From a phage, in the sequence record PZ445473.1: 64,000 bases of DNA; one strand, written 5' to 3'. Below the pieces are notes generated by a model. It saw nothing but the letters and a program-made list of their open reading frames with translations. It did not search any database and was not told the origin of the DNA. Shown here piece by piece: positions 25,454 to 61,400 of this stretch (the first letter of the stretch is position 1; every line of letters starts with the position of its first letter). The position numbers and the translations under genes are program-made.

Positions 25454-26272
25454 TTACCAAGATTTATCTAACCATGTCCAGTCGAACAGGTCTTCCGGAG
25501 CCTGACCAACAAAGAGAAGCCGAGCATTCTCAAGCATTTTCTCTTCATCTTCAGTATCGAACTTCTTATAATATTCCATTCGTACTATATGATACATGGT
25601 CCACTTATCTGTAACCCCAGCCAACAACTTAGCTGCTGCTTTCTTCCCTATCCCTTGACGTCGAAGCTGGAGCTTACCGCCCCACATCACTTCTTTACGT
25701 TCACCACATCCGGGAATATTATCTGTTCCATCTCCAATCAGCATCTGATAGAAGAAATTTTGCCATGAAACTAAATCAGATACGTAGTGAGGAGGAACCT
25801 CTTTTTGTCTTTCTCCACAAGCCCAACGGTAATGCCATCCGGGAGTTATTAACAAATCTTTGTCTCTAGTACAGATGATAGTGTTCTTATCTCTACGTTG
25901 CCTTTCAGCTAGTGCATCATCAGCCTCTCTCCCAAATACATCTATGTATTCATACTTACCTTTAATATAATCACCGACATTTTGCCAGTGAAAAGGTCTT
26001 TCTCCGGGAGGTCTGTTTGCTTTGTAGTCTTGCTGCTTAGCAACATCGAAACGGAAGTTACCGCCTTCGCTGAAGTAGAACACAACCTTGCTGCAACCTG
26101 AGCGAGCAATGATAGTATCTATCTTGTACTGAAGTCGTTCAATCATGAAATTATAATCAACTGGAACACGTCCTGTGTCAAGAAAGGGATGCTCCTGAGT
26201 AAGAGCACCCACTTCATATCGAAGAACGTCAGCATCCACTATAGCTATTTCAGGGAGCTTAACGTCTTCCAT
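25454..26272 (-). CDS. 5'-3' exonuclease / flap endonuclease
   Basis: LIGDGTDNIPGCGERKEV...GIGKKAAAKLLAG matches the GD.SDNIPG...GIG..A..LL helix-3-turn-helix motif of the FEN family. Confidence 0.7.
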   Translation of the reverse strand: MEDVKLPEIAIVDADVLRYEVGALTQEHPFLDTGRVPVDYNFMIERLQYKIDTIIARSGCSKVVFYFSEGGNFRFDVAKQQDYKANRPPGERPFHWQNVGDYIKGKYEYIDVFGREADDALAERQRRDKNTIICTRDKDLLITPGWHYRWACGERQKEVPPHYVSDLVSWQNFFYQMLIGDGTDNIPGCGERKEVMWGGKLQLRRQGIGKKAAAKLLAGVTDKWTMYHIVRMEYYKKFDTEDEEKMLENARLLFVGQAPEDLFDWTWLDKSW

Positions 26273-27736: not shown

Positions 27737-28483
27737 TTAGAATGGGCTGTCGTTGTCGTCTTCGTAGGTAGAAGCAGGCTCTTTATCAATCGTAGGGATT
27801 GAAGGGGTAGCTTCTTTCTGTTCTGTTTCAGAAGCACGAGTAATTTCACGACCAGCCAGAGGAATGTTCTTAGCGTCATTAGCTTGAGTAAGCAGGTTGC
27901 GCTGGAACGGGAACATCAGTTGATAAGATGCTACGTTCTCATCGGTTTCCGCATACGGTTCGAAGAATACCAGAGGACTACGAGCTTCACCAACTGCTGC
28001 ACGATATTTGGTTGGGATTGGAGAAATGGTTTTGATGGAGTTTTTAACTTCACCAGCTTTGTTAGTGTAGGAGTTAACCAGAATGTTAACAGGCTGACCT
28101 AACAGCACATCCTTAAACCAAGACAGATCACCTTTCAGTGCTTGAATGCTTGGGTCAATCATCTTGCAAAGATCAAGGATACCAGAGTTCTTAGCTCGTG
28201 GGTTTACATCATAACTCTTGAACTGGCAAGCAGGACGTGGTTCTAATGCCTTACCATCGGAATCTTTACCCGTAGCATCAACACCAATCAGCTCGAAAGC
28301 CAAATCCATACGGAAAGCTGGATTCTTAGGAGTTACTGCTTTGGTCTTCGGGTCAATCCAAGGGTCACGATTGTGAACACCCAAACCTACTACACGAACA
28401 ATACGTGCTTCGTATTCACCATCAGGGATTACATCGTAGTTGGATTTACGAGAAGAAGTTGCGATAGTTGGAATCATAGACAT
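27737..28483 (-). CDS. ssDNA-binding protein-like (acidic C-terminal tail ending in Phe)
   Basis: 248 aa ending YEDDNDSPF, resembling the acidic C-terminal tail of SSB proteins. Confidence 0.45.
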   Translation of the reverse strand: MSMIPTIATSSRKSNYDVIPDGEYEARIVRVVGLGVHNRDPWIDPKTKAVTPKNPAFRMDLAFELIGVDATGKDSDGKALEPRPACQFKSYDVNPRAKNSGILDLCKMIDPSIQALKGDLSWFKDVLLGQPVNILVNSYTNKAGEVKNSIKTISPIPTKYRAAVGEARSPLVFFEPYAETDENVASYQLMFPFQRNLLTQANDAKNIPLAGREITRASETEQKEATPSIPTIDKEPASTYEDDNDSPF

Positions 28484-28541
28484 ATTTTAATTTCCTTATT
28501 TAATTTGAAAGATTGTTGCTCTCTTTGAGCGGTTATGTATA

Positions 28542-28551
28542 GTATACATTA
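28542..28551 (-). promoter_or_regulatory. TAATGTATAC motif (minus strand), about 58 nt upstream of the SSB-like gene
   Basis: Plus GTATACATTA = minus TAATGTATAC; part of the perfect palindrome ATGTATAGTATACAT. Confidence 0.4.
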
Positions 28552-28614
28552 CGCTTATACCGATAAGAGTACTATATAATATAAGTATCTTTGGTAGTAG
28601 ATATAACACACTAG

Positions 28615-28626
28615 TAATGTATATAT
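28615..28626 (+). promoter_or_regulatory. TAATGTATATAT motif on plus strand inside a 420-nt gene-free region
   Basis: CTAGTAATGTATATATTG; oriented away from the SSB gene. Confidence 0.3.
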
Positions 28627-28905
28627 TGTATAGCTGATAAAGTTATTGCAGGCTTGTATATTGGGCAATTCATAGAATCCCTTGCAAGTACCGAAGGGCA
28701 GGAGCCACCTGCGAGATAAAAAATAGAGAATTAAGGAATCCTTGATTTAGGTTGTAGGGACTCCTAGGGACTTTGATTCTCTATTTAAAAGAATAAATAA
28801 TTACTATATCTAATACTAAACAGACTGAAACAAAGATAAGAAACTTCTTATAAATACTCATTACTTATCATCTAAATAGTTAACTAATCTCTGATATAAA
28901 GAAGT

Positions 28906-30384: not shown

Positions 30385-32229
30385 TTAGTGTGTATGCATC
30401 CAGTTTAACCCAATCTGACAATCAGAAGCCAGAGGACATTCCATGTTCAAGTACTCACCAGCCTTCTTAACACAAAGCTCGGTGTACTCTTTGAGTTTCT
30501 GTACATCATTACGGTTCACTGAGAACTGGCCCTCATCGTGCATATCAATTACCTTAGCACAACGAACTCCATCTTTCTCAATCCACTTGTTAAGGAACAT
30601 CATAGCATATTTCATAACAACAGCACCAGCACATTGCAGGAGTGTGTTAAGGGCTTTATGAACCATAACCTTACCAGTGGCATCCCGTCTCATTGTAATC
30701 TTACGACCATCAACGCCAATCAAATACCCTTGAGCAGCTTTCTCTGTCATACGATCAATGAGGATTGCAATACATGGGTTCTCTGCCAAGAAGCGTGCTC
30801 GCATCACTGAACCTTCGTCAGCTCCACCACCTACGATTGAACCAAGCTTAGCATCACCAGCACCATAGTTAAACGCGTAGATAAACGTTTTAGCGTTGTC
30901 ACGAGTAGGAAGACCAGCAAGTTTCTGGTTGTGGGAGTGGATATCACCTTCAAGAAGGATATCACGATACATAATAGCAGAAGCTAAACCACGTTCTGCC
31001 AGAGCTTTCTTAGCTGGATTATTCTCTTCGATTGCTTCAGCAAGCATATCCCTACACTCTTTAATGAGGTAGTGAGCGAGCATACGAAGTTCAAGTCCAG
31101 AACCATCATACCCTAAGAATACTTCTTTACCAGCGGGTATGTAATATTTGTAAGCACCTACAGGCTTATCTTTCTTCCCCGGCTTACCTTTCTCGTAAAT
31201 TACGTTAGTACCTTTTCGTATATAACAACCATCAGGAACAACGTTAGTAATAACGAAAGGACGAGAGTGATCACTGTCTGAATTATAGTCAGACTCAAAC
31301 AAACTGCGACACTCATGACCAAACAAACCACGGGAGGGAATATTAACCACGATACGATGTTTGAATCGAAAAGTTGGCGTAGCGCAGCTGTTAGCTTCTG
31401 CCGAAAGTTTACCATCTTCGCGTTCCTTTGCTATGAGTCCACTGATAAGACCTAGCCTGTGAGCCGCTACAACGCGCCTCTTAAGCAAACTTCCAACACT
31501 CCCTAGCTCGCCCCCTAACCCTTCTTCAAGAGTCTCCTCGAGGTTTGTAGGAGCTGTAGGCCACTTGTTTGAGGTAGCTAGTGCTATCTTAATCTCATCA
31601 AACGTGATAGGTCTACTTCGGTTAGGGTTTAAACCTAAACCAAACACATAAGCCTTCATATAGTTCTTAGTCTTAAACCTAAAATGCTTCTCTAAGAACC
31701 TCCTAATATCTGCGTCAACCATCTCGGCTGTCTGCTTCTGTTTAGCATTACCTCGCATCCAAGCTGAATACCATGCTTGGTATGTCCCATACTTTCGAAT
31801 ATCTTTCTTGATTTCAAAAGTATTCCAAGGTTTCTTTGATACGTTAAACTCTGGAGGAAGAAAACCCTCATCCATAAGGGCTTCTTTAACTCGTGCATCT
31901 TTCGATGGGTCAAAGTCTACATACTCAACACAGGTGAATGCTCCACCAATGTCTTCTCTCTTAAGGCCAACTCTATCACAGTAGGCTTGAGGCCACTTCT
32001 GTAAAGCTCCAGACTTCTTAAATGGCTTCATATAAGTAGAGCCATCTAATCTCATCTTAGGTAAGAGAGGGATCAGTTCTTTGTCGATATTAACAATAAT
32101 CTCTTTAAGGAGGTGAACATACCACCGAGCATTTCTTCGGTTGAAACTCACTCCGTGCTTCGCTTGCTTAGAGATTATATCAGCGACAGTCATCTCTGTC
32201 AAAAATGGGAGAGCGTCCGGGTTGCTCAC
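30385..32229 (-). CDS. DNA polymerase, family A (polymerase domain only)
   Basis: Motif A LGYDGSGLELRMLAHY, motif B RDNAKTFIYAFNYGAGDAKLG, motif C VIDMHDEGQF. Confidence 0.85.
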   Translation of the reverse strand: MSNPDALPFLTEMTVADIISKQAKHGVSFNRRNARWYVHLLKEIIVNIDKELIPLLPKMRLDGSTYMKPFKKSGALQKWPQAYCDRVGLKREDIGGAFTCVEYVDFDPSKDARVKEALMDEGFLPPEFNVSKKPWNTFEIKKDIRKYGTYQAWYSAWMRGNAKQKQTAEMVDADIRRFLEKHFRFKTKNYMKAYVFGLGLNPNRSRPITFDEIKIALATSNKWPTAPTNLEETLEEGLGGELGSVGSLLKRRVVAAHRLGLISGLIAKEREDGKLSAEANSCATPTFRFKHRIVVNIPSRGLFGHECRSLFESDYNSDSDHSRPFVITNVVPDGCYIRKGTNVIYEKGKPGKKDKPVGAYKYYIPAGKEVFLGYDGSGLELRMLAHYLIKECRDMLAEAIEENNPAKKALAERGLASAIMYRDILLEGDIHSHNQKLAGLPTRDNAKTFIYAFNYGAGDAKLGSIVGGGADEGSVMRARFLAENPCIAILIDRMTEKAAQGYLIGVDGRKITMRRDATGKVMVHKALNTLLQCAGAVVMKYAMMFLNKWIEKDGVRCAKVIDMHDEGQFSVNRNDVQKLKEYTELCVKKAGEYLNMECPLASDCQIGLNWMHTH

Positions 32230-32245
32230 TTTATACTCCTTTAAA

Positions 32246-32668
32246 TTATTGGTAAAGTAAATCTGTAAATGCTTGGTTGTCTTCTACTACATCTAGCAAG
32301 GTTGCTTCGTTACTATAAGACCTAACCGTCCCGTTGACAACTGTCCGAGTAGGAGAGGGAGGTGGTGTATGGTTAGCTCTAGCTTCGCGAGGTTGCTCTC
32401 GTACTAAATGAGCCATAGCCATTTGGTTAGCGACTTCTTCTCTTTCTCGAATAGCTCTCTGAATATAAGCTAGCTTCATGCCCCAAGCTTCTTCAAATTC
32501 TTGAGGATGTTTGTCACTGATAACCACATATTGACGTTCAGGGATACCAGAGCGAATCTCTGATAAGAGTTCACAGAACAAATCCAGTTCGTGTTCAGTG
32601 AGATTCATTTCGATATCATCCCACTTGAGAACTAGGAAACGGTTTTGATATCTAGTCGGTAATGGCAT
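32246..32668 (-). CDS. hypothetical protein
   Basis: 140-aa ORF. Confidence 0.45.
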   Translation of the reverse strand: MPLPTRYQNRFLVLKWDDIEMNLTEHELDLFCELLSEIRSGIPERQYVVISDKHPQEFEEAWGMKLAYIQRAIREREEVANQMAMAHLVREQPREARANHTPPPSPTRTVVNGTVRSYSNEATLLDVVEDNQAFTDLLYQ

Positions 32669-32671
32669 AGC

Positions 32672-32926
32672 TTAACCTTTAGGGAATGGGATGAGGTTTT
32701 CTACTGCAACACGGAATTCTTTCTCTACATCTTTATTCTTATAAGAAATAAATTTCCCATCAGCACCACGGAGGATTACGTTAGTACGAGCTGTTTTTGG
32801 GTTATGACTGATTTGGTTTGCAATGAGACTAATGTTGAGTTTAGTGTTGTGGTTATTGGTGAATTTCCACTTAGCCAGACGATTAGTCATTACATCAATG
32901 ATAGTTACAGTTTTTACAATAGACAT
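32672..32926 (-). CDS. hypothetical protein
   Basis: 84-aa ORF. Confidence 0.45.
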   Translation of the reverse strand: MSIVKTVTIIDVMTNRLAKWKFTNNHNTKLNISLIANQISHNPKTARTNVILRGADGKFISYKNKDVEKEFRVAVENLIPFPKG

Positions 32927-32960
32927 AGTTATTACCTAAGAAGTTTAGTTTGGTTTATAT

Positions 32961-32990
32961 AAAAGAAAAGGCCACCCATTTGGGTAGCCT
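32961..32990 (-). terminator. rho-independent terminator (minus strand)
   Basis: Minus-strand AGGCTACCCA-AA-TGGGTGGCC followed by TTTTCTTTT. Confidence 0.55.
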
Positions 32991-32994
32991 CATA

Positions 32995-33312
32995 TTACGA
33001 TGAGCTTAAAGCTCCTTTGCGTGCTCCAGCTGCCTTCCCAGTTCGATCTCCACTTTTGCCGCCAGCTGAACGATTTCCGCTGACTGTTTCAACACGTAAG
33101 TTGCTTGACGCATTAGAGCCTCCTGACTTGATAGCTCGTTTGTGTCCAACGTCTTTACCTCTGACAGCAGCTTTTCCATCGCGCTTTTCAACGATGCGAC
33201 GTGCACGGTGGCGCTGAGCATCTCCGCTCTTGCTACCAATTCCCGTTTCACCCCTTGCGATGGCGGTACGTCTTTCTTGTGCATAATCTCTCTTTCCTAC
33301 ATGGTCTGCCAT
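32995..33312 (-). CDS. basic Gly/Arg/Lys-rich protein
   Basis: 105 aa; strong AAGGAG RBS; chosen over the overlapping frame 33006-33284. Confidence 0.5.
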   Translation of the reverse strand: MADHVGKRDYAQERRTAIARGETGIGSKSGDAQRHRARRIVEKRDGKAAVRGKDVGHKRAIKSGGSNASSNLRVETVSGNRSAGGKSGDRTGKAAGARKGALSSS

Positions 33313-33347
33313 TTAGAACTCCTTAATATATCAGTGTACACTAAGGA

Positions 33348-33357
33348 GTATACATTA
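33348..33357 (-). promoter_or_regulatory. TAATGTATAC motif (minus strand), 36 nt upstream of the ATG at 33312
   Basis: Plus GTATACATTA = minus TAATGTATAC. Confidence 0.4.
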
Positions 33358-33729
33358 TGAATGATGTTAAAACTCTGCTAAGTATTTAATATCAGAGGCA
33401 TATACCTCATCAAAGGAAATAATTTCTCCATTGTAAAGAAGTTCTATCTTCAATATACCAGAGCATTTGGTGTCTTTAGAATCAACCCTGATAGAGAGCT
33501 TATCAACTATCTGAGCTTTAATCTCTTCTATCATTAACTCTTGAGTGTTATTCACTCCACCCTCCCGGTGGTACAAAATCATCAGGAACGTCAATGATAG
33601 TAGGTTCTCCATTATTCATGCAGGTGTCTTCATTGAACTCTTCACACTCAAAGCATGCTCGTTCGATATTTTTGTAGAAGTCGATGGTTGCTGAACCATC
33701 ACCACAATCTCGGATAACTAGAGCTACTT

Positions 33730-34473
33730 TCATTTCTCTTGTCCTTTTTCCATTGCTTTAACAATAGCTTTACAGAAACCAGAACGAACAATGTCATCTG
33801 ATTCACCATCTACAATCTCAGCGAACTCATACAGATCATGTTCATCAATAAAGTTAGTAGCCCAAGTAAGACCACTCTCACGACCACGCATGTCATGCTG
33901 GTTAGTATCACCCATGCAGAACAGTTGAGAGGTTTCTCCCAATCGAGTCATGATTGAGAAGGCTTCATCTTTAGTGGTGTTCTGGAATTCATCAACAATA
34001 ACAACAGCATCATTGAAAGAACGACCACGGAGATATTCCAGAGGTACGAACTCAATATTACTGTTACCAAGCTGGCATTCATAGAACCCCTTACCATATC
34101 GCTGAGTAATAACATCGATGATAGGCATCAGGTATGGTTCAAACTTCTCACGCATCCCTCCCGGAAGTAACCCAAGAGAGTTGCCCATACCAACTGAAGG
34201 ACGGCTAAGAATGATCTTCTGAATCTTACCACTCTTCAGAGCATCGATAACTGTAGAAGTGATTACATAGGTCTTACCACAGCCCGCAGGAGCGTCTGTG
34301 AACACCACTTGTTTAGTCTTGATAGCATTGAGTAGCTCAGATTGAAACTGATTCTGAGGAACCACTGGCTTCGCTAAAACAACCTCTTCATACTCACGCT
34401 TACCTTTCTTAGTGACCAAGGCTTCACGACGTAAATCTTTACGAGATTCTCTACGGGACTGTCTACGGCTCAT
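33730..34473 (-). CDS. phoH: PhoH-like ATPase
   Basis: Walker A PAGCGKTY; LSRPSVGMGNSLGLLPG and VIVDEFQNTT match PhoH family motifs. Confidence 0.8.
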   Translation of the reverse strand: MSRRQSRRESRKDLRREALVTKKGKREYEEVVLAKPVVPQNQFQSELLNAIKTKQVVFTDAPAGCGKTYVITSTVIDALKSGKIQKIILSRPSVGMGNSLGLLPGGMREKFEPYLMPIIDVITQRYGKGFYECQLGNSNIEFVPLEYLRGRSFNDAVVIVDEFQNTTKDEAFSIMTRLGETSQLFCMGDTNQHDMRGRESGLTWATNFIDEHDLYEFAEIVDGESDDIVRSGFCKAIVKAMEKGQEK

Positions 34474-34655
34474 TTGCGCTCTCCTAGCTCTTCGTAATTA
34501 AATACAGAGGTTCGACAATCTTTACATGTTGTTGTATAGACTCGAACATTAATGTACTTCTTGTTCTTCCCTTTGGTTGGAGAGCCTTTAGCAAGCTCTC
34601 TGATAACCTTGTTACTTAAGTGAAGGTTTGTGCCTTCGCATTTAGAGCACTTCAC
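34470..34655 (-). CDS. small zinc-ribbon protein
   Basis: CSKCEG ... CKDCRT paired Cys motifs in 61 aa. Confidence 0.45.
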   Translation of the reverse strand: MKCSKCEGTNLHLSNKVIRELAKGSPTKGKNKKYINVRVYTTTCKDCRTSVFNYEELGERK

Positions 34656-34876
34656 TCAGGCTCACCAACAGTAACTTCCCATACAACTTGAGAGATGATA
34701 TTGTTGATCTGTTTGATTTGCTCGTAAGTCAGTTGCATACCTTTCATCTTCCGAGAGGCATTGCTTCGTGCTCTTCGCTGACGGTAGAAGTTATTCTTTT
34801 TAGTAGAGTGTAATCTACTCATTTCACAAGCTCCACTTCTTCAATACTGTACCCTTCAAAATACTCACCATCTTGA

Positions 34877-35233
34877 TCATACTGGTTGATTGCTCTTGTT
34901 AGTACCCACACTTTCATTATTCTTCTCTTTATGAAGTCTATAAACAGCTGTCGCCATGCAAGCAACAGCTTCATTGTGTGGGAGATGCATCCCTGTAGAA
35001 CCATCCCAATCTTTGAACTCATTGTCAAAGACTCCGGTAGGCTCTGGATACAGAGCTTGCAGCTCAACCAAATCATTAGCAACTTGTTGCCATTTATCAT
35101 CAGACCAGATAGGGTCATCCAACCAGTAATACAAATAGGAATGGATGATTAATTGCCTTCTGTGCCGATTAATTACTTCAGCGGGACTTATCTCACTTCC
35201 ATTTGAAGTCCTAAATGTATTACTGTCAATCAT
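34877..35233 (-). CDS. hypothetical protein
   Basis: 118-aa ORF. Confidence 0.4.
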   Translation of the reverse strand: MIDSNTFRTSNGSEISPAEVINRHRRQLIIHSYLYYWLDDPIWSDDKWQQVANDLVELQALYPEPTGVFDNEFKDWDGSTGMHLPHNEAVACMATAVYRLHKEKNNESVGTNKSNQPV

Positions 35234-35235
35234 GA

Positions 35236-35892
35236 TTAATTATTCCAAGTAGTTGATAAGGCTTTCCAAGAGATAGGATAAAGTTTCTTCATTTCTTCAT
35301 CAATAGTTTGTGCAAACAGTCGGACCTCATACTGAGCGTGCTCTGACAGACGTTGACGGCACACATCTGACCAGCCATATAGAGAGCCAGTCCACACCCA
35401 CTCAGTGATCATCCCCTGAGGAAGAACAAATCGAGCTTGCTCTGGTGCAACAAATTCAATCAACTTATCATATGCTGCTAGAGAGGATTCATATGCATCG
35501 TTAATCAGCATTAATGCTTCAGCTCGTTCTCCATCGATGAGTTGAATCCCTGAACCTGCATGGAGGTCCGAAGGTCTCGCAAAAATCTCTTTAGGGATGA
35601 AGACTTCAACTGCTCCATCTTTATACCGACGGGACATTTCGTTCCACGAGAATCCAACCTGATGCTTGCCCAGCTGTCTCGCAATTGCGATAGGTGCTTT
35701 GCATCGGAAACTGACTTGTGGGTGTCGGAATGGAGTAACATGCTTTTCTCTTGCGAGGAAGTTGATGAGACGTTCATCACGTTCATTTAAATCACCTTCA
35801 CGGGTTACGCCAAAGGAAACTCGAGCTGCGTTTACTACGCTACGATCGCTTCCCATAGCTTCGATTAATGTTGCTTGTAGTTGTTCATTCAT
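35236..35892 (-). CDS. thyX: flavin-dependent thymidylate synthase (ThyX)-like
   Basis: AARVSFG, HVTPFRHPQVSFRC, MSRRY and HAQYEVRLFAQ follow the ThyX motif order; the canonical RHR is replaced by KHQ. Confidence 0.55.
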   Translation of the reverse strand: MNEQLQATLIEAMGSDRSVVNAARVSFGVTREGDLNERDERLINFLAREKHVTPFRHPQVSFRCKAPIAIARQLGKHQVGFSWNEMSRRYKDGAVEVFIPKEIFARPSDLHAGSGIQLIDGERAEALMLINDAYESSLAAYDKLIEFVAPEQARFVLPQGMITEWVWTGSLYGWSDVCRQRLSEHAQYEVRLFAQTIDEEMKKLYPISWKALSTTWNN

Positions 35893-35907
35893 CCGTGAAT
35901 ATCCTTA

Positions 35908-36183
35908 TTATTTATTGCTCAGTGCTGTGTCCAAAAATGCTTTCAGGTTTGCTTCAGTCTGCATACCAGAGAGGCTGTAATGTGCGCCACTATTCCGGTC
36001 AGGCACAACGAAAGCAGGAATGCTTCGTACACCATACTTAACAGCTTGTTCACGACCGTCACCCTCAAGGATATTAATCTCTTCCACTTCTACATCGAAC
36101 TCCTTAACAACCTTCTCAAAGATAGGAGCCATTGCTTTACATGGAGCACACTGATCACTATAAAACTTAATTACTTTAGACAT
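35908..36183 (-). CDS. thioredoxin/glutaredoxin-fold protein
   Basis: 91 aa with CAPC redox motif in thioredoxin-like context. Confidence 0.55.
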   Translation of the reverse strand: MSKVIKFYSDQCAPCKAMAPIFEKVVKEFDVEVEEINILEGDGREQAVKYGVRSIPAFVVPDRNSGAHYSLSGMQTEANLKAFLDTALSNK

Positions 36184-36191
36184 GTAAATCC

Positions 36192-36371
36192 TTATGCAGT
36201 CAGGAGGTGAAGCAGGAATGGGATAACAACAGCTACGACAACCATGATAGTTGATGCTGTTTGAATCTCACCTTTCTTGTCAGGGGTTTCTTCGATAAGC
36301 TTACCAGAAGCCCAATAGATACCACCACCAATAAAGATAGCCCAAATACCCCATACAATAGCTGATAACAT
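36192..36371 (-). CDS. small two-TM membrane protein (below track size cutoff)
   Basis: 59 aa MLSAIVWGIWAIFIGGGIYWASGK...IMVVVAVVIPFLLHLL; AAGGA RBS. Confidence 0.4.
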   Translation of the reverse strand: MLSAIVWGIWAIFIGGGIYWASGKLIEETPDKKGEIQTASTIMVVVAVVIPFLLHLLTA

Positions 36372-36384
36372 ATATTCATATCCT

Positions 36385-36419
36385 TATAAATAGAAAACCC
36401 CGTCTATTCCTAGACAGGG
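36385..36419 (-). terminator. terminator-like hairpin (minus strand)
   Basis: Imperfect 9-bp stem CCCCGTCTA/TAGACAGGG followed on minus strand by TTTTCTATTT. Confidence 0.4.
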
Positions 36420-36428
36420 CTTGAGTTT

Positions 36429-36992
36429 TTAGTAAGACACATCACCACTTGAGTGGGACATGTTGCTCTTGACGAAGTAGCAATACTTGCCAAGACCTTC
36501 ATTGATTTCTTGAAGCATACTTTGATCGACTGGATAAGTGGCTAAATCGCCATCAAACTCATCCATCTTCTCAATAATACACATCAAGGTCATGCACATA
36601 TCAGAGAGCATACCGTCCATGTCTAGATCAGCGTTACCCTCTGAGAACCAAGCATGAGAGAGGTAGTTAGCTGCTGTAGCATCCACTTTAACACAGTGGT
36701 AACGCATACGTTCAGCAATACGATCTCCTACTTGTCGTGCGTAATCTTCCAGCTCGTCAAACATACCATGAACACCCTGAAATCCTGCACCAGAGACGTT
36801 CCAGTGGTAGTTTTTAGCTTTGATGTGCAAGAGTTCCATATTAGCTTGTAAGCAGCTCAGGATGTGTTCTAGGCTGTTTCCGCTAATCATGCCTTGCATT
36901 GTTTCAAGGCGAGAGATTGAAAGCTCAGACCGGTCTAACATGCTGTAGCTGTCACGACCAATCTCAGGTAAATCAAAGACATTCTTATGCAT
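36429..36992 (-). CDS. Dps/ferritin-like protein
   Basis: HIKAKNYHWNVSGAGFQGVHGMFDELEDYARQVGDRIAERM matches the Dps ferroxidase-region pattern; start taken at ATG 36992. Confidence 0.5.
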   Translation of the reverse strand: MHKNVFDLPEIGRDSYSMLDRSELSISRLETMQGMISGNSLEHILSCLQANMELLHIKAKNYHWNVSGAGFQGVHGMFDELEDYARQVGDRIAERMRYHCVKVDATAANYLSHAWFSEGNADLDMDGMLSDMCMTLMCIIEKMDEFDGDLATYPVDQSMLQEINEGLGKYCYFVKSNMSHSSGDVSY

Positions 36993-37314
36993 TTGGGTTT
37001 TCTCCATCAAGTTCAACTGAGTTAGCAACGTTACGTGCAATATTGTCCATTACCTGCTGGGTAATTACGATGCAGTTCTGTGGGTCTACTGACTTAGAAC
37101 GCCCCATTTCTGGGTCATACACCTTAACACGCTTAGCAGTTGAACCTGTAACCTGAAGAACCTTCAACAGATATCCCTGATTACCGATAGACCAAGCAAC
37201 AACATCACGATTCTTGATAAAGCGACCAAGCATATCACGATGATAAAACTGTTGCATCACCTTGGATTTTGTAATCTCTTCAGTGGGCGGGGCCACTTTA
37301 CTCAAATCTAACAT
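36985..37314 (-). CDS. hypothetical protein
   Basis: 109-aa ORF. Confidence 0.4.
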   Translation of the reverse strand: MLDLSKVAPPTEEITKSKVMQQFYHRDMLGRFIKNRDVVAWSIGNQGYLLKVLQVTGSTAKRVKVYDPEMGRSKSVDPQNCIVITQQVMDNIARNVANSVELDGENPNA

Positions 37315-37596
37315 AACTCTCTCCTGTAAAATACAAACTCTTATTGTACTCTATATACATTTGAGAGTTACCATATCTACTACCAATCAGTAGTGAACTT
37401 TTCCGCTAATATAAACACGACCAGAGGAATACTCTTTGGCCTTATGGATACTGATACTCTTAGTTAAATCTGTATTGAACATAGACTTTTTAAAATCTCG
37501 AGCCTGTTGACGAGTAGGAAGTGCAGTCATGGTCATACCACCTGATGCCCACTTAATCTTTGCTAACCAAAACTGTCTCATAATGATTGGCCTCAT

Positions 37597-38130
37597 TTAC
37601 ACACCTTTAGATGCAACTACACCTTCAGAGTTATTATAACGACCCTTCACTGCATAGGAATGCTCCCCTGCATGAGAGTGCTCAAACATGACCATCTGAC
37701 CAACACGCATACCAGCACGAACTCGTAAGCTGTGGTGCTTTGTTACGTTATGAAATTCAAATGTCAGCTTACTGCTATTAAATCCAGCGTCTGCCCACCC
37801 AGCGTGGAGGTGGTTCAAACCACAACGAGCCATAGATGAACGCAGGACAAACAGGCTTGAAATGTTATCTGGAAGGTTAAACTCCTCCATAGAGTGAGCC
37901 AAGAAGAACTGACCCGGAGTGATAACCAAACCCTCTTCAGGAATTTTTACTTCCTTCCACTGAAGATTCTCTTTCGCATCAATATCAACGATGCCATCAG
38001 CCTGTTCTTCAACAAGGATAGTATCACCAATACGGATATCCACACTAGCAGCGTTAACATACTTATGCTCCGCATCCAGATAGCCATTGTCAATTACATC
38101 ATGCAGTTCAATACTTCCTAGTAAACTCAT
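37597..38130 (-). CDS. dCTP deaminase/dUTPase-family protein
   Basis: RSSMARCGL, AGWADAGF and GMRVGQMVMF match dCTP deaminase family motifs. Confidence 0.6.
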   Translation of the reverse strand: MSLLGSIELHDVIDNGYLDAEHKYVNAASVDIRIGDTILVEEQADGIVDIDAKENLQWKEVKIPEEGLVITPGQFFLAHSMEEFNLPDNISSLFVLRSSMARCGLNHLHAGWADAGFNSSKLTFEFHNVTKHHSLRVRAGMRVGQMVMFEHSHAGEHSYAVKGRYNNSEGVVASKGV

Positions 38131-38139
38131 TCTTATTCC

Positions 38140-39384
38140 TTAGTTGTTTGTTTCTATGTCAAAAGAGAATCCACGACCCGCTTCATCGGCAAACCGAGCT
38201 GTATGGGTTTGAGGCTCTAATACTTCAGGGTTGTTAGCAATAAAGCGAGCGGCGAGATTATCTTCCACATCTTGACTAGAGGGCTGACGTGCACTAACGT
38301 TGAAGCCATTCGGTCGACCACGAGAAGGACTAGACATCCATCTTTCCATAGAATCACTTGTAACACCAAGAGCTTCTTCAAAAGATGTTCTACGGGTAGA
38401 GCTTAGATTTCGTGCTTCATGTGCCACTCTTGCAGGGGTTACAAATAACCCTTCAATTGCATTATGTCGATTAGGTTCATCTTCCCGACCAAGGAGATCA
38501 CCTCCTGCATTAGTTGTTAAGTTTGTCAACCCTTCAGACCAATACGCACGAATCTGGCTAGAGCCATAAATGCCTGACATTAACTGAATCTCTTCATAAG
38601 GTATATCAAAGAATCGACTCATGTCTCGGTTAACACAATACTGAGCACTTGTTGTATCCTCAATAAGAGCAACCTGACCCCGTTCGTTGACCAGATGACT
38701 AACCGGCTGAGGTGTGGGAAGGTGTCGAGTTTGGGCCATGTATTGATATGCAGCTGCTGGATAGGAAAATCTCAACACTTGCGAGTTAGGCCACTTCTTG
38801 TGAACATACCTGATTTCACGACTAGAAACAACCACTGGACAAGGGGCGGTCATAGCCAAGTATCCATGAGGGGTCATGAATAAGTTATCAAGAGTCATCG
38901 CACCACGGCACATCATAGGAAAATTATCCAATACCTCTTCAATAGAAGTAGGATAATTAAACATGAATTGGATACGAACACCATTCCACTGAAACTCAAT
39001 AATATCAGTGAATGTTAATTGAGAACCCCCAGCATATGGCTCATCTGTAGCTTCAACAAGAAGAGATGAATACTCAATATCTTGTGATTCAAGCCATTCC
39101 TTCACATTACTTTCAATCTCCCGCCCAAGCATTTGCCACTGCTCGGTTGGGATAAAGGTGTTTCGAGTTCTTGGTGTTTGTCCTCTGACAATAAAGATAT
39201 CGATGTCATGTGGAGCTGTGTTATTAAGAACAGCATCACGAATAGCCCCACCAGTAATGATAGGGCAAATACCATCTGGAATCAAGTTGTTGTTAATCAA
39301 CTGTTCAATGAAGTGACGACCAACAGTGATATCAGGTTGTTGAGCAACCTTATCTTCAATTCGGTTAATCGGGATAACAATCAT
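38140..39384 (-). CDS. nucleotidyltransferase of the CCA-adding/poly(A) polymerase type
   Basis: ITGGAIRDAVLNNTAPHDIDIF matches the GG.VRD...DiDi head-domain motif; ATG at 39384 is adjacent to the upstream stop. Confidence 0.45.
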   Translation of the reverse strand: MIVIPINRIEDKVAQQPDITVGRHFIEQLINNNLIPDGICPIITGGAIRDAVLNNTAPHDIDIFIVRGQTPRTRNTFIPTEQWQMLGREIESNVKEWLESQDIEYSSLLVEATDEPYAGGSQLTFTDIIEFQWNGVRIQFMFNYPTSIEEVLDNFPMMCRGAMTLDNLFMTPHGYLAMTAPCPVVVSSREIRYVHKKWPNSQVLRFSYPAAAYQYMAQTRHLPTPQPVSHLVNERGQVALIEDTTSAQYCVNRDMSRFFDIPYEEIQLMSGIYGSSQIRAYWSEGLTNLTTNAGGDLLGREDEPNRHNAIEGLFVTPARVAHEARNLSSTRRTSFEEALGVTSDSMERWMSSPSRGRPNGFNVSARQPSSQDVEDNLAARFIANNPEVLEPQTHTARFADEAGRGFSFDIETNN

Positions 39385-39385
39385 T

Positions 39386-39940
39386 TTACATTTTCCAATA
39401 TAATGAAGGTGGGTCATAAGGATCAAATCCTGTGTGTTCACACAAGTATTTATAAACCTTAACAGTTAAGTTAACGTCCTGTTCACAGTAAGTAAACATA
39501 TCTTCAGTGAAAGCATCCCATGCTTCCTCCTGCTCACCGTAATCTCCTTTAAGTTCCCCTAAGAACTCACCCCATTGCTTCAAACCGTGACCTCTTGGGC
39601 CATGTCTAGGGTCGCCTTTCGGATACTCAGGACTGTCACCAATACGGTCAGGTTTAAGATATCGACTAAGACACAGAGTGTCGAAGACGTTAAAACGATA
39701 TTTAATCAGATTGGGATATATTTTCTTCAGAGCACAAAGGTCGAAGTCAATAATGTTATGGCCCACGAGCACATCAGCTTCTGTAAGTTTACGAATCCCA
39801 TCTTCAATTTGGTGAGGCCTGTAGCCCCACCTTTCACCAGTTTCAACATCGAAAATGTAAATACACCATACTTTAGTTATATCATCGTACAGTGCGTTAC
39901 TTTCGATATCAAATGCAAACACTTTCTTTTTCTTTACCAC
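39386..39940 (-). CDS. 3'-5' exonuclease (DEDD family), stand-alone
   Basis: Exo I FAFDIESN, Exo [10 protein letters not shown], Exo III YCEQDV. Confidence 0.7.
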
Positions 39941-41724
39941 GGTGAAGCTCCATCTGCTTGGTTAACGAGAGAAGCTGCATCCTCTCCGTTAGTTAAAACG
40001 AATGGATTATCTTCATCAACTTCAAAGTCTTCCCTTTCTACAAGTCTACCGGTTTCACTGATATACTTAGTATAACAGACACCAGTCTGACCGTAGTTAC
40101 GTTCTTTCAGTAATCGAATGACCGAGAGGTTCTTAGCTAAGCCATCAGCTTGCTTGTCACGTTCAAAGCCAATGATGCACTGACACCAACGCATAAGGGA
40201 ACGAGAACCAGTGAACTGCACTTCACGTACCTGTCCACCTTCTTCGTGAGGAGCACCACCTGCCGGGGCATTAAGGTGAGATAACACGAAAGCTGTAAAG
40301 TCTAATTCTTTACACATACCAGCAAGCTCGGAAGCAATCTTACTGATTTCAGTGTTAATCTCTGAAGGTGTTAAATGAGATACCAGAGCGGTAATGTTAT
40401 CAAGGATGATGAACTTACACTGGTTTTCAACTACCCAGAAACGTATACACTGTTTAATGTCTTCCCATTCATTCTGTCCGAAGTTGTCATACAAGAAGAA
40501 TTTATCTGCATAACGAAGTGCTTCATTACGCAAATCTTCCTCGTCATATTCAACATCAGGTCGGTGGAAAGGGATTGATGCTGACTTACCAGCAATATTC
40601 TTAACAGACATGCCTACCTTCTCTTCCAAGAAGAAGCCACCCCCATTAAAACCATGCTCTAAGCACAGATGAGCAACCAGTTCGTGAGCAATTAGTGTTT
40701 TACCACTGCCTACACCACCACCTATTGCTACCACCTCTCCCCATCGAATACCGAAGGTCATCTCATTCAGAGTTTTCCACGGATAGGGAATACCCCACTC
40801 CGCTTTCTTCAGAGCATCATCAAGGCAATCAAAGATTGTTACAGCGCCAGCAGGAGATTCCCGCTTTGCTGAATACTTGAGAATGTTGAATAACTCTTGA
40901 CCACGACCAGACAGAAGCATGTCATTCGCATCCTTAATCTCTTTCTCCACACCGTTGTATGGGAAGGTTCCTTTAGGGATACGAGCAAATTTGACATGAG
41001 GGAATAAAGAACGACCTTTTGTTAAAGCTATCTCACCTGCATCGTCATTGTCCATGCAGAGCACAACCTCCTCAAAACCATTTACGAAGTCCCGATTACG
41101 AGACAACACAGAAGAGATTGAACCTGCACCGAACGGTAAAGAAACACATGCTGGTTTAATGTTTGTTGCATTTGTAAAAGCTGTAAGGACGTGGAAACCA
41201 GACATACAAGATAGCGGGTCTTCAAAAATGAATAGCTTCTTGTTGTACACATCCCCACGTTGAGCTTGTGCCATACCAAAAAGATCTGCTTCTTTTACAC
41301 TACCTACGTAATAGAACTTCTTACTATCTAGCAGCTTAACCTCGTAACCAACAATGTTTCCATCACGTTCACGAGGAAAGAAGTAGCTGTCCGGAGTCTG
41401 TCCATCAGTCTGACTTAGACCGATGCGACACTCAAAACGCTCTGATACAGCTTTAGGGATTAGACGTCGAGTGAGTTCACCCTGAGGAAGTTCTAAGCAA
41501 TCATCTAAGACTTCTCTTAACTCTTCAGGGGATAACTCTTTCTTCTCATTTGGAGTAGGTGCAGTGCCCTTTTCGAACACTTCGTAATTCCCACAACGGT
41601 TACAACTTCCCCACTCCTCACCTGTCTCTTCGTTACGGAAGAGAATCATGTGGTTGTGGGTTTTATCACGACCATGAGAGATACATTCTTTACAACCTGT
41701 GTCTCCCAAAATGATCTTTGACAT
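39934..41724 (-). CDS. bifunctional primase-helicase
   Basis: N-terminal Cys-rich zinc motif (CKECISHG...CNRCG), central acidic MDNDDAGE, C-terminal Walker [10 protein letters not shown]. Confidence 0.8.
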
Positions 41725-61372: not shown

Positions 61373-61400
61373 ATTATAGGTTAGGCTTTTCAGTTGTCAA
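61373..61400 (-). promoter_or_regulatory. sigma-70-type promoter (minus strand): -35 TTGACA, 16-bp spacer, -10 TATAAT
   Basis: Plus TGTCAA 61395-61400 and ATTATA 61373-61378; A-rich tract upstream on minus strand. Confidence 0.55.

Follow-up and report, generated by a model that had tools for sequence, protein, structure and literature searches.

Introduction

The separation of polymerase and proofreading activities onto two genes has been on record for phiEco32-like phages since 2008, when the phiEco32 GenBank record (EU330206) noted that gp53 'lacks 5'-3' and 3'-5' exonuclease domains' and annotated gp74 as a type I DNA polymerase that 'contains 3'-5' exonuclease domain'. Both activities were later reported on separate genes in all LUZ24-group phages (PMC3517423, 2012), and that paper notes that a comparable organisation had been reported for phiEco32. 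Taken together with PMC9965538, it describes a split common to LUZ24-like and Kuravirus-like phages. PHROGs families already carry the name "DNA polymerase exonuclease subunit", and PMC4331800 contains nothing on the polymerase. Here we describe a two-gene family A DNA polymerase in a 64,000-nt stretch of phage DNA (PZ445473.1; hereafter the window), in which a polymerase gene (30385-32229) and a 3'-5' exonuclease gene (39386-39940) lie about 7 kb apart. All genes and motifs given below by window coordinates are on the minus strand.

The S-SBP1-type family A polymerase of T7-like cyanophages is likewise encoded by two genes, and its AlphaFold complex superposes on an unsplit relative (PMC10201439). 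That split arose by a recent +1 frameshift, and the two genes are adjacent and overlapping, whereas the halves described here lie kilobases apart and their separation is common to several phage genera. The analogy between split polymerases and the archaeal PolD was made in the same paper. T7 gp5 (with E. coli thioredoxin and gp4) is the best solved-structure match for both halves and has the same motifs, including the motif B tyrosine, but is a single 704-aa chain. Polymerase and proofreading activities also reside on separate, non-covalently assembled polypeptides in E. coli Pol III (alpha-epsilon) and archaeal PolD (DP1-DP2). The polymerase folds of these enzymes (families C and D) are unrelated to the one considered here, and the resemblance is functional only.

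A megablast search with 30385-39940 returned a full-length match of 100% identity to Escherichia phage JacquesWildberger_Bas92 (PQ850610.1; hereafter Bas92), a phiEco32-like podophage. Identities were otherwise 97-99% to three close relatives and approximately 92% to phiEco32 and other Kuravirus/Gordonclarkvirinae podophages, with about 100 records matched in all. The two-gene polymerase of Bas92 is a real trait, and one already documented for the phiEco32-like and LUZ24-like groups.

Results and discussion

The polymerase gene encodes no exonuclease domain

The 614-aa polymerase (30385-32229) corresponds to Bas92_0038, whose GenBank product is "DNA polymerase" and whose CDS coincides with the open reading frame (ORF). 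Comprising thumb, palm and fingers, it is the catalytic subunit. Pfam identified DNA_pol_A alone (PF00476; residues 361-611, 4.7e-23, 82 bits compared to a cut-off of 34.3), and the protein matched positions 836-1233 of the phrog_17 profile. The best PDB sequence match was T7 DNA polymerase (3e-33 by phmmer, as compared to 4e-6 for Klenow). For an AlphaFold2 model of the polymerase alone (pLDDT 90.3), the best PDB matches in Foldseek were all T7 DNA polymerase (E=3e-26; Pol I of Bst and Mycobacterium reached ~1e-16). In sequence as in fold, the protein is a family A polymerase of the T7-like subfamily, and its nearest solved structure is T7 gp5 rather than a bacterial Pol I.

Three T7-like motif patterns were tested (A, D..G.ELR; B, R..AK...Y...YG; C, HDE), and all three are present. 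Motif A reads DGSGLELR (D375-R382; 31084-31107) and motif C reads HDE (H564-D565-E566; 30532-30540), both as regex matches. Motif B, RDNAKTFIYAFNYG (R443-G456; 30862-30903), was read in the sequence and from the alignment with T7, where it is paired with T7 RDNAKTFIYGFLYG and carries the T7-type Tyr within an FIY triplet. Among 46 homologues, D375, L379, E380, L381 and R382 of motif A, R443, A446, K447, Y451, Y455 and G456 of motif B, and the whole of motif C were invariant. The loop that matches the thioredoxin-binding loop of T7 lies in a stretch that can be aligned (polymerase residues 72-145) but is about 20 T7-specific residues shorter in Bas92.

A complete exonuclease domain was looked for within the polymerase ORF and was not found. 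Scanning the ORF for the exonuclease motifs D.E[TSAG] and N...[FY]D gave no match, and Pfam reported no exonuclease family in residues 1-360 even at E<=1. Residue 72 of the polymerase already aligns with residue 293 of T7 gp5 (polymerase 72-145 to T7 293-373, E=3e-5), which leaves no N-terminal room for a domain of about 185 aa. In the AlphaFold2 model, the insertions of the polymerase are helical or beta-rich and not RNase H-like. A hidden exonuclease domain is ruled out by these four lines of evidence.

An AAGGAG Shine-Dalgarno sequence precedes the polymerase gene. Codons 10-19 of the polymerase ORF (32174-32202) contain a perfect extended sigma-70 consensus, TTGACA-N17-TGaTATAAT. Perfect -35/-10 matches occur only twice in the window, here and at 61373-61400 (minus strand). 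A transcript begun at 32174-32202 would be without the polymerase start codon. The consensus is kept in phiEco32 and IMEP8, although both are at least 92% identical in any case.

The polymerase genes of relatives are also of note. An HNH homing endonuclease gene breaks up that of phage PE006 close to the 3' end (497-2912 of its locus), and polymerase fragments of about 450 aa are found in several metagenomic relatives. An intron has been reported in the LUZ24 polymerase gene (PMC3517423).

A separate gene beside the primase-helicase encodes the exonuclease

The 184-aa product of 39386-39940 corresponds to Bas92_0056, for which the GenBank product is "DNA polymerase exonuclease subunit" and the CDS again coincides with the ORF. 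Pfam placed it in DNA_pol_A_exo1 (PF01612; E=3.8e-9, 37 bits compared to a cut-off of 23.6), and it matched phrog_403 and phrog_38876, both families named 'DNA polymerase exonuclease subunit'. It also matched positions 668-826 of phrog_17, ending 10 positions before the match of the polymerase starts. Three exonuclease motifs were located: Exo I (DxE) as D11-I-E13 (39902-39910), Exo II (Nx3[FY]D) as N62-IIDF-D67 (39740-39757) and Exo III (Yx3D) as Y151-CEQ-D155 (39476-39490). The DxE motif, N62, D67, Y151 and D155 were invariant in 41 homologues that included T7 gp5 and extended down to 33% identity. Judged by its family matches and motifs, the protein is a stand-alone DEDDy (DnaQ-like) 3'-5' exonuclease, and it is presumed to be the proofreading subunit of the polymerase.

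The exonuclease gene has its own GTG start codon at 39940, its own stop codon and a GGAG Shine-Dalgarno sequence. Its start codon overlaps the stop codon (39934-39936) of the gene upstream in the 7-nt sequence GTGGTAA (39934-39940), which suggests that the exonuclease may be translationally coupled to that gene. The upstream gene (39934-41724) encodes a 596-aa T7 gp4-like primase-helicase (Pfam DnaB_C and Toprim_2; phrog_239, 6e-176), whose C-terminus is an acidic tail with Trp as the last residue.

The gap between the exonuclease and polymerase genes measures 7,156 nt (32230-39385) and, by ORFs, Pfam, PHROG and GenBank annotation, holds about 18 genes, all on the same strand. The first-pass annotation of this DNA had proposed a 614-aa polymerase with motifs A, B and C and no Exo motifs, and had placed Exo I-III in a 184-aa gene beside the primase-helicase, 7 kb away. 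The Pfam matches, motif positions, T7 alignment, AlphaFold2 model and measured distance bear out each of these points.

The split and its gene order are kept across phage lineages

A full-length homologue of the exonuclease-less polymerase was found in approximately 241 of 50,697 deposited phage genomes. The 372 matching records came mostly from Pseudomonas and Escherichia phages, and the remainder partly from phages of Aeromonas, Salmonella, Proteus and Vibrio. The split is fixed in the phiEco32/Kuravirus-like phages, in 7-11, in Privateer, in the Aeromonas and Vibrio relatives and in the LUZ24-like phages. It is not a chance pattern, since it is kept in about 100 phiEco32-like genomes and in other genera. 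The description of the arrangement as uncommon in the first-pass annotation holds when the comparison is with textbook family A polymerases. It does not hold among phages, given that the split is fixed in whole lineages and has been annotated since 2008.

Gene order was compared in five split genomes: Bas92 (phiEco32-like), phiEco32 and IMEP8 (Kuravirus), UFV-P2 (LUZ24-like) and the Aeromonas phage APT65. This comparison, which the first-pass annotation had proposed, revealed the same order in phiEco32-like, LUZ24-like and Aeromonas phages. In all five, genes for an ATP-grasp protein, a gamma-glutamyl cyclotransferase (GGACT) and the primase-helicase are followed by the exonuclease, a variable cargo and the polymerase. 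The spacer between exonuclease and polymerase is 7,156 nt in Bas92, 7,991 nt in phiEco32, 8,877 nt in IMEP8, 2,098 nt in UFV-P2 and 9,620 nt in APT65. T7, with gene 5 after gene 4, shows a collinear order, and so does a single-chain metagenomic relative in which the primase-helicase gene is followed by a small ligase-like gene and a fused polymerase.

The gp53 and gp74 genes of phiEco32, and their Kuravirus/Gordonclarkvirinae-like counterparts, are orthologous to the Bas92 pair, with about 92% DNA identity, the same order and the same primase-helicase neighbour. The difference lies only in the cargo between the halves. The LUZ24-like phages (LUZ24, PaP3, tf and UFV-P2), in which the two genes are called 'DNA polymerase part I' and 'part II', share the layout of primase-helicase, exonuclease, spacer and polymerase. 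Their polymerase is 39-43% identical to that of Bas92 over its full length. They differ in a spacer of about 2.1 kb with other small genes and in a shorter polymerase of approximately 545 aa.

Some relatives are annotated with 'DNA polymerase (x2)'. This is only a difference in naming, the term 'DNA polymerase' having been applied to the exonuclease gene.

The two proteins are complementary parts of a gp5-like polymerase

When joined end to end, the exonuclease and polymerase aligned collinearly over their whole length with seven single-chain homologues of metagenomic origin (44-47% identity) and with T7 gp5 (32% identity). The exonuclease covers residues 1-193 of T7 gp5 (3-185 in one of the alignments) and the polymerase covers residues ~293-704. 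The alignment is disturbed only where the two proteins meet: some 15 residues are extra there, between the last helix of the exonuclease and the first helix of the polymerase. Because the exonuclease and polymerase are complementary pieces that are collinear with single chains, and because the break falls in the interdomain linker, the alignments identify the two proteins as products of gene fission of a gp5-like polymerase.

Divergence from the single-chain relatives is much the same for both halves (38-46% identity for the exonuclease and 45-49% for the polymerase; 34% and 33%, respectively, to T7). This argues that they share one history and that the exonuclease was not acquired separately. 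HMMER was also run exhaustively with the exonuclease as query. Of the best 150 representatives of 50%-identity clusters, 86 were at least 550 aa long, and 30 had at most 240 aa and are stand-alone proteins. Among the matches listed, the exonuclease match begins at the protein N-terminus, and the long proteins are single-chain polymerases.

The exonuclease-less polymerases carry a thumb insertion

Alignment with the single-chain relatives showed that the extra length of the 614-aa polymerase consists of three insertions, which were surveyed in 39 exonuclease-less homologues, the seven single-chain metagenomic homologues and T7. Insertion 1 (polymerase residues ~133-235; 31525-31833) is an ordered, mostly helical thumb subdomain of about 100 aa. 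Its helices in the AlphaFold2 model span residues 137-147, 150-158, 162-182, 188-197, 210-218 and 230-237, with pLDDT mostly 87-96. It was present at 72-103 aa in 39 of 39 exonuclease-less homologues (103 aa in Bas92), as compared to 10-17 aa in the single-chain enzymes and 43 aa in T7.

Insertion 2 (residues ~318-368; 31126-31278) is beta-rich, comprises about 50 aa just before motif A and was seen both in the alignments and in the model (strands within 325-364). It occurs in nearly all of the 39 exonuclease-less polymerases, at 21-56 aa in most, as compared to 0 aa in the single-chain homologues and 8 aa in T7. Insertion 3 (residues ~389-421; 30967-31065), defined from alignments, is a helical segment of 33 aa after motif A. 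It is confined to the phiEco32/Aeromonas-like branch, and T7 has 8 aa at this position. The LUZ24-like polymerases share insertions 1 and 2 and lack insertion 3.

The thumb insertion, and perhaps the beta-rich insertion, might be adaptations that accompanied loss of the covalent link between exonuclease and polymerase, although we consider this rather unlikely. Insertion 1 could act as a docking clamp for the free exonuclease, or as a processivity element that replaces the shortened thioredoxin-binding loop. If this were true, the split state and insertion 1 would together mark one ancient fission common to the phiEco32-like, Aeromonas/Vibrio-like and LUZ24-like phages. The discovery value of the split itself is small, since it has been in the phiEco32 record since 2008 and in several papers; what is new, as a small lead, is that the thumb insertion goes together with the split state.

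Assembly in trans and alternative explanations

The active sites of both proteins are intact, with the catalytic residues invariant in the homologues examined. An AlphaFold2 model of the exonuclease and polymerase concatenated into one chain reached a pLDDT of 87.5, with low confidence only at the junction (177-185) and in one exonuclease loop. The TM-score normalised to T7 gp5 rose from 0.49-0.54 for the polymerase alone to 0.71-0.78 for the fused model, which indicates that the exonuclease takes its T7 position in that model. For the S-SBP1-type split polymerases, a heterodimer was inferred from a true two-chain prediction, and the stability of family A polymerases was reported to depend on the exonuclease domain (Czernecki et al. 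2023; PMC10201439). Assembly of the Bas92 exonuclease and polymerase in trans, which the first-pass annotation had taken the split to imply, is plausible.

We consider it likely that the Bas92 replicase is a T7 gp5-type enzyme split by an old fission, the exonuclease of which docks non-covalently through a T7-like interface to form a two-subunit proofreading enzyme. The ancestor would have been a single-chain enzyme of the T7 gp5 type, and the fission would have occurred in the linker between the 3'-5' exonuclease and polymerase domains. On the simplest reading, the exonuclease half kept its ancestral place immediately after the primase-helicase gene, with which it is translationally coupled, and further genes gathered in the gap, so that the polymerase half now lies 7.2 kb downstream of it on that strand. 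The 184-aa exonuclease would dock at the interface that the two domains form in T7 gp5, and the docked pair would rebuild a two-subunit proofreading replicase that works with the gp4-like primase-helicase. Okazaki fragments would be processed by a separately encoded 5'-3' exonuclease (25454-26272).

Several observations weigh against this proposal. The fused model was a covalent end-to-end chain, and its alignment contained natural single-chain enzymes, so that the placement of the domains is biased toward the T7 arrangement. The alignment was unpaired and did not include exonuclease-only homologues. The model is compatible with a heterodimer but does not amount to an independent test of binding in trans. 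Binding of the exonuclease to the polymerase is a prediction from sequence and modelling; no supporting experiment, and no biochemical test of the complex, was found in the literature. Two strong terminator-like hairpins lie on the coding strand in intergenic gaps between the two genes (36422-36395 and 32991-32968), with stems of 12 bp and 10 bp, respectively, and T-rich tails. The two genes may consequently be on different transcripts and expressed at different levels. Lastly, a neighbor-joining (NJ) tree of the polymerases groups the phiEco32-like and LUZ24-like enzymes together and puts the single-chain clade beside another exonuclease-less clade. One fission as opposed to several is not established by this placement, and the tree, which is rooted on the long T7 branch and has no support values, is tentative.

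The alternative that survives best is that the exonuclease does not dock on the polymerase but is recruited to the fork via the primase-helicase, where it would edit in trans as a factor only loosely attached to the replisome. The exonuclease gene directly follows the primase-helicase gene in every group examined, with an overlap of 7 nt in the window, phiEco32 and IMEP8, an overlap of 26 nt in UFV-P2 and a distance of 12 nt in APT65, while the distance from exonuclease to polymerase varies from 2.1 to 9.6 kb. This adjacency is explained equally well by the ancestral order of gene 4 then gene 5 having been kept. In addition, the T7 gp5 domain to which the exonuclease is orthologous lies packed on the polymerase palm and thumb, and the fused model reproduces this packing. 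We regard recruitment by the primase-helicase as unlikely.

Less probable still is that the polymerase works alone without proofreading and that the exonuclease has an unrelated job in recombination, repair or host DNA degradation. Family A polymerases without a proofreading exonuclease do function alone, as in Taq and Pol theta. The 7 kb and possible terminators between the genes are in keeping with such independence, and the interaction of the two proteins is a predicted one. However, both genes are present in all five split genomes examined, all six catalytic residues of the exonuclease are invariant and the halves diverge from their single-chain relatives at similar rates. Both genes are also reported as common to the Kuravirus-like group (PMC7881722), and the reported structural need of family A polymerases for an exonuclease domain speaks against a polymerase that acts by itself.

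There is very little to recommend the view that RNA or protein trans-splicing unites the two ORFs, as 'exons', in a single chain. It draws on the "two exons" wording in the UFV-P2 paper and on the presence of introns and homing endonucleases in polymerase genes of the clade (the LUZ24 intron and the PE006 HNH gene). Against it, some 18 conserved protein-coding genes occupy the spacer. Translation signals are present for each half separately (a start codon and a GGAG Shine-Dalgarno sequence), and the exonuclease ORF is closed by a stop codon of its own. A split intein is ruled out by the junction, where the approximately 15 extra residues could not accommodate the intein halves. That the split stems from an error of sequencing or assembly, or from a recent pseudogenising frameshift, has next to no probability; nothing was found in favor of this view, and it is already refuted by the comparative data, given the same arrangement in about 100 independently sequenced relatives and in other genera and the 7 kb of functional genes between the halves.

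A non-covalent two-subunit enzyme, the reading favored here, would make this clade of interest beyond the split itself, as it offers a natural two-subunit family A replicase for the study of assembly, fidelity and regulation. Bas92 is a member of the BASEL phage collection, and experiments on the split replicase should therefore be practical.

Neighboring genes and other features

A third nuclease/polymerase activity, the 5'-3' (FEN-like) exonuclease mentioned above, is on its own gene in Bas92, as is gp6 in T7. The 272-aa protein (25454-26272) was assigned from weak Pfam matches to 5_3_exonuc_N/5_3_exonuc, an NCBIfam match to the Pol I N-terminal region and the GenBank product 'exonuclease'. 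A separately encoded 5'-3' exonuclease has been described for relatives (PMC9965538).

The genes of the spacer include those for a PhoH-like ATPase, an Nlig-Ia protein, ThyX, a thioredoxin, a Dps/ferritin-like protein, a dCTP deaminase and a nucleotidyltransferase. Those with an assigned function act mostly in nucleotide metabolism. The phage thioredoxin (35908-36183; 91 aa, Pfam Thioredoxin, 3.5e-13) has a CAPC active site and is possibly a processivity partner, as hypothesized for the relative Privateer (PMC7881722), although its membership of the polymerase system is uncertain. No thioredoxin is annotated in the corresponding region of the split phages UFV-P2 and APT65.

The nucleotidyltransferase gene (38140-39417) encodes 425 aa (phrog_12715; weak match to a PolyA_pol head domain) and shares 32 nt with the 3' end of the exonuclease gene. 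Phages of the phiEco32-like group have it immediately after the exonuclease gene, whereas APT65 and UFV-P2 do not. The 118-aa Nlig-Ia protein (34877-35233) corresponds to the N-terminal Ia (NAD+-binding) domain of NAD-dependent DNA ligase alone (Pfam Nlig-Ia, 2.5e-35). It is annotated 'DNA ligase', yet is without an adenylation or OB domain. The Dps/ferritin-like 'DNA binding protein' (36429-36992) has an orthologue labelled 'integrase' in IMEP8, KM01 and PE006. Bas92 and phiEco32 annotate it as a Dps-family DNA-binding protein, and the 'integrase' label looks like an annotation error copied between records.

A 248-aa protein of unknown function (27737-28483) has an acidic tail ending ...TYEDDNDSPF. 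We take this tail and that of the primase-helicase to resemble the tails of T7 gp2.5 and gp4 that bind gp5. A gp2.5-like single-strand DNA-binding protein was guessed from the tail and set aside, the 248-aa protein having no PDB match by sequence and only a weak NCBIfam match to a phage replication initiation family.

A run of A at ~28718-28723 is A6 in the window and A5 in the deposited Bas92 record. This homopolymer is intergenic, within about 420 nt of non-coding DNA (28484-28905), and the extra A offsets record coordinates from window coordinates by 1.

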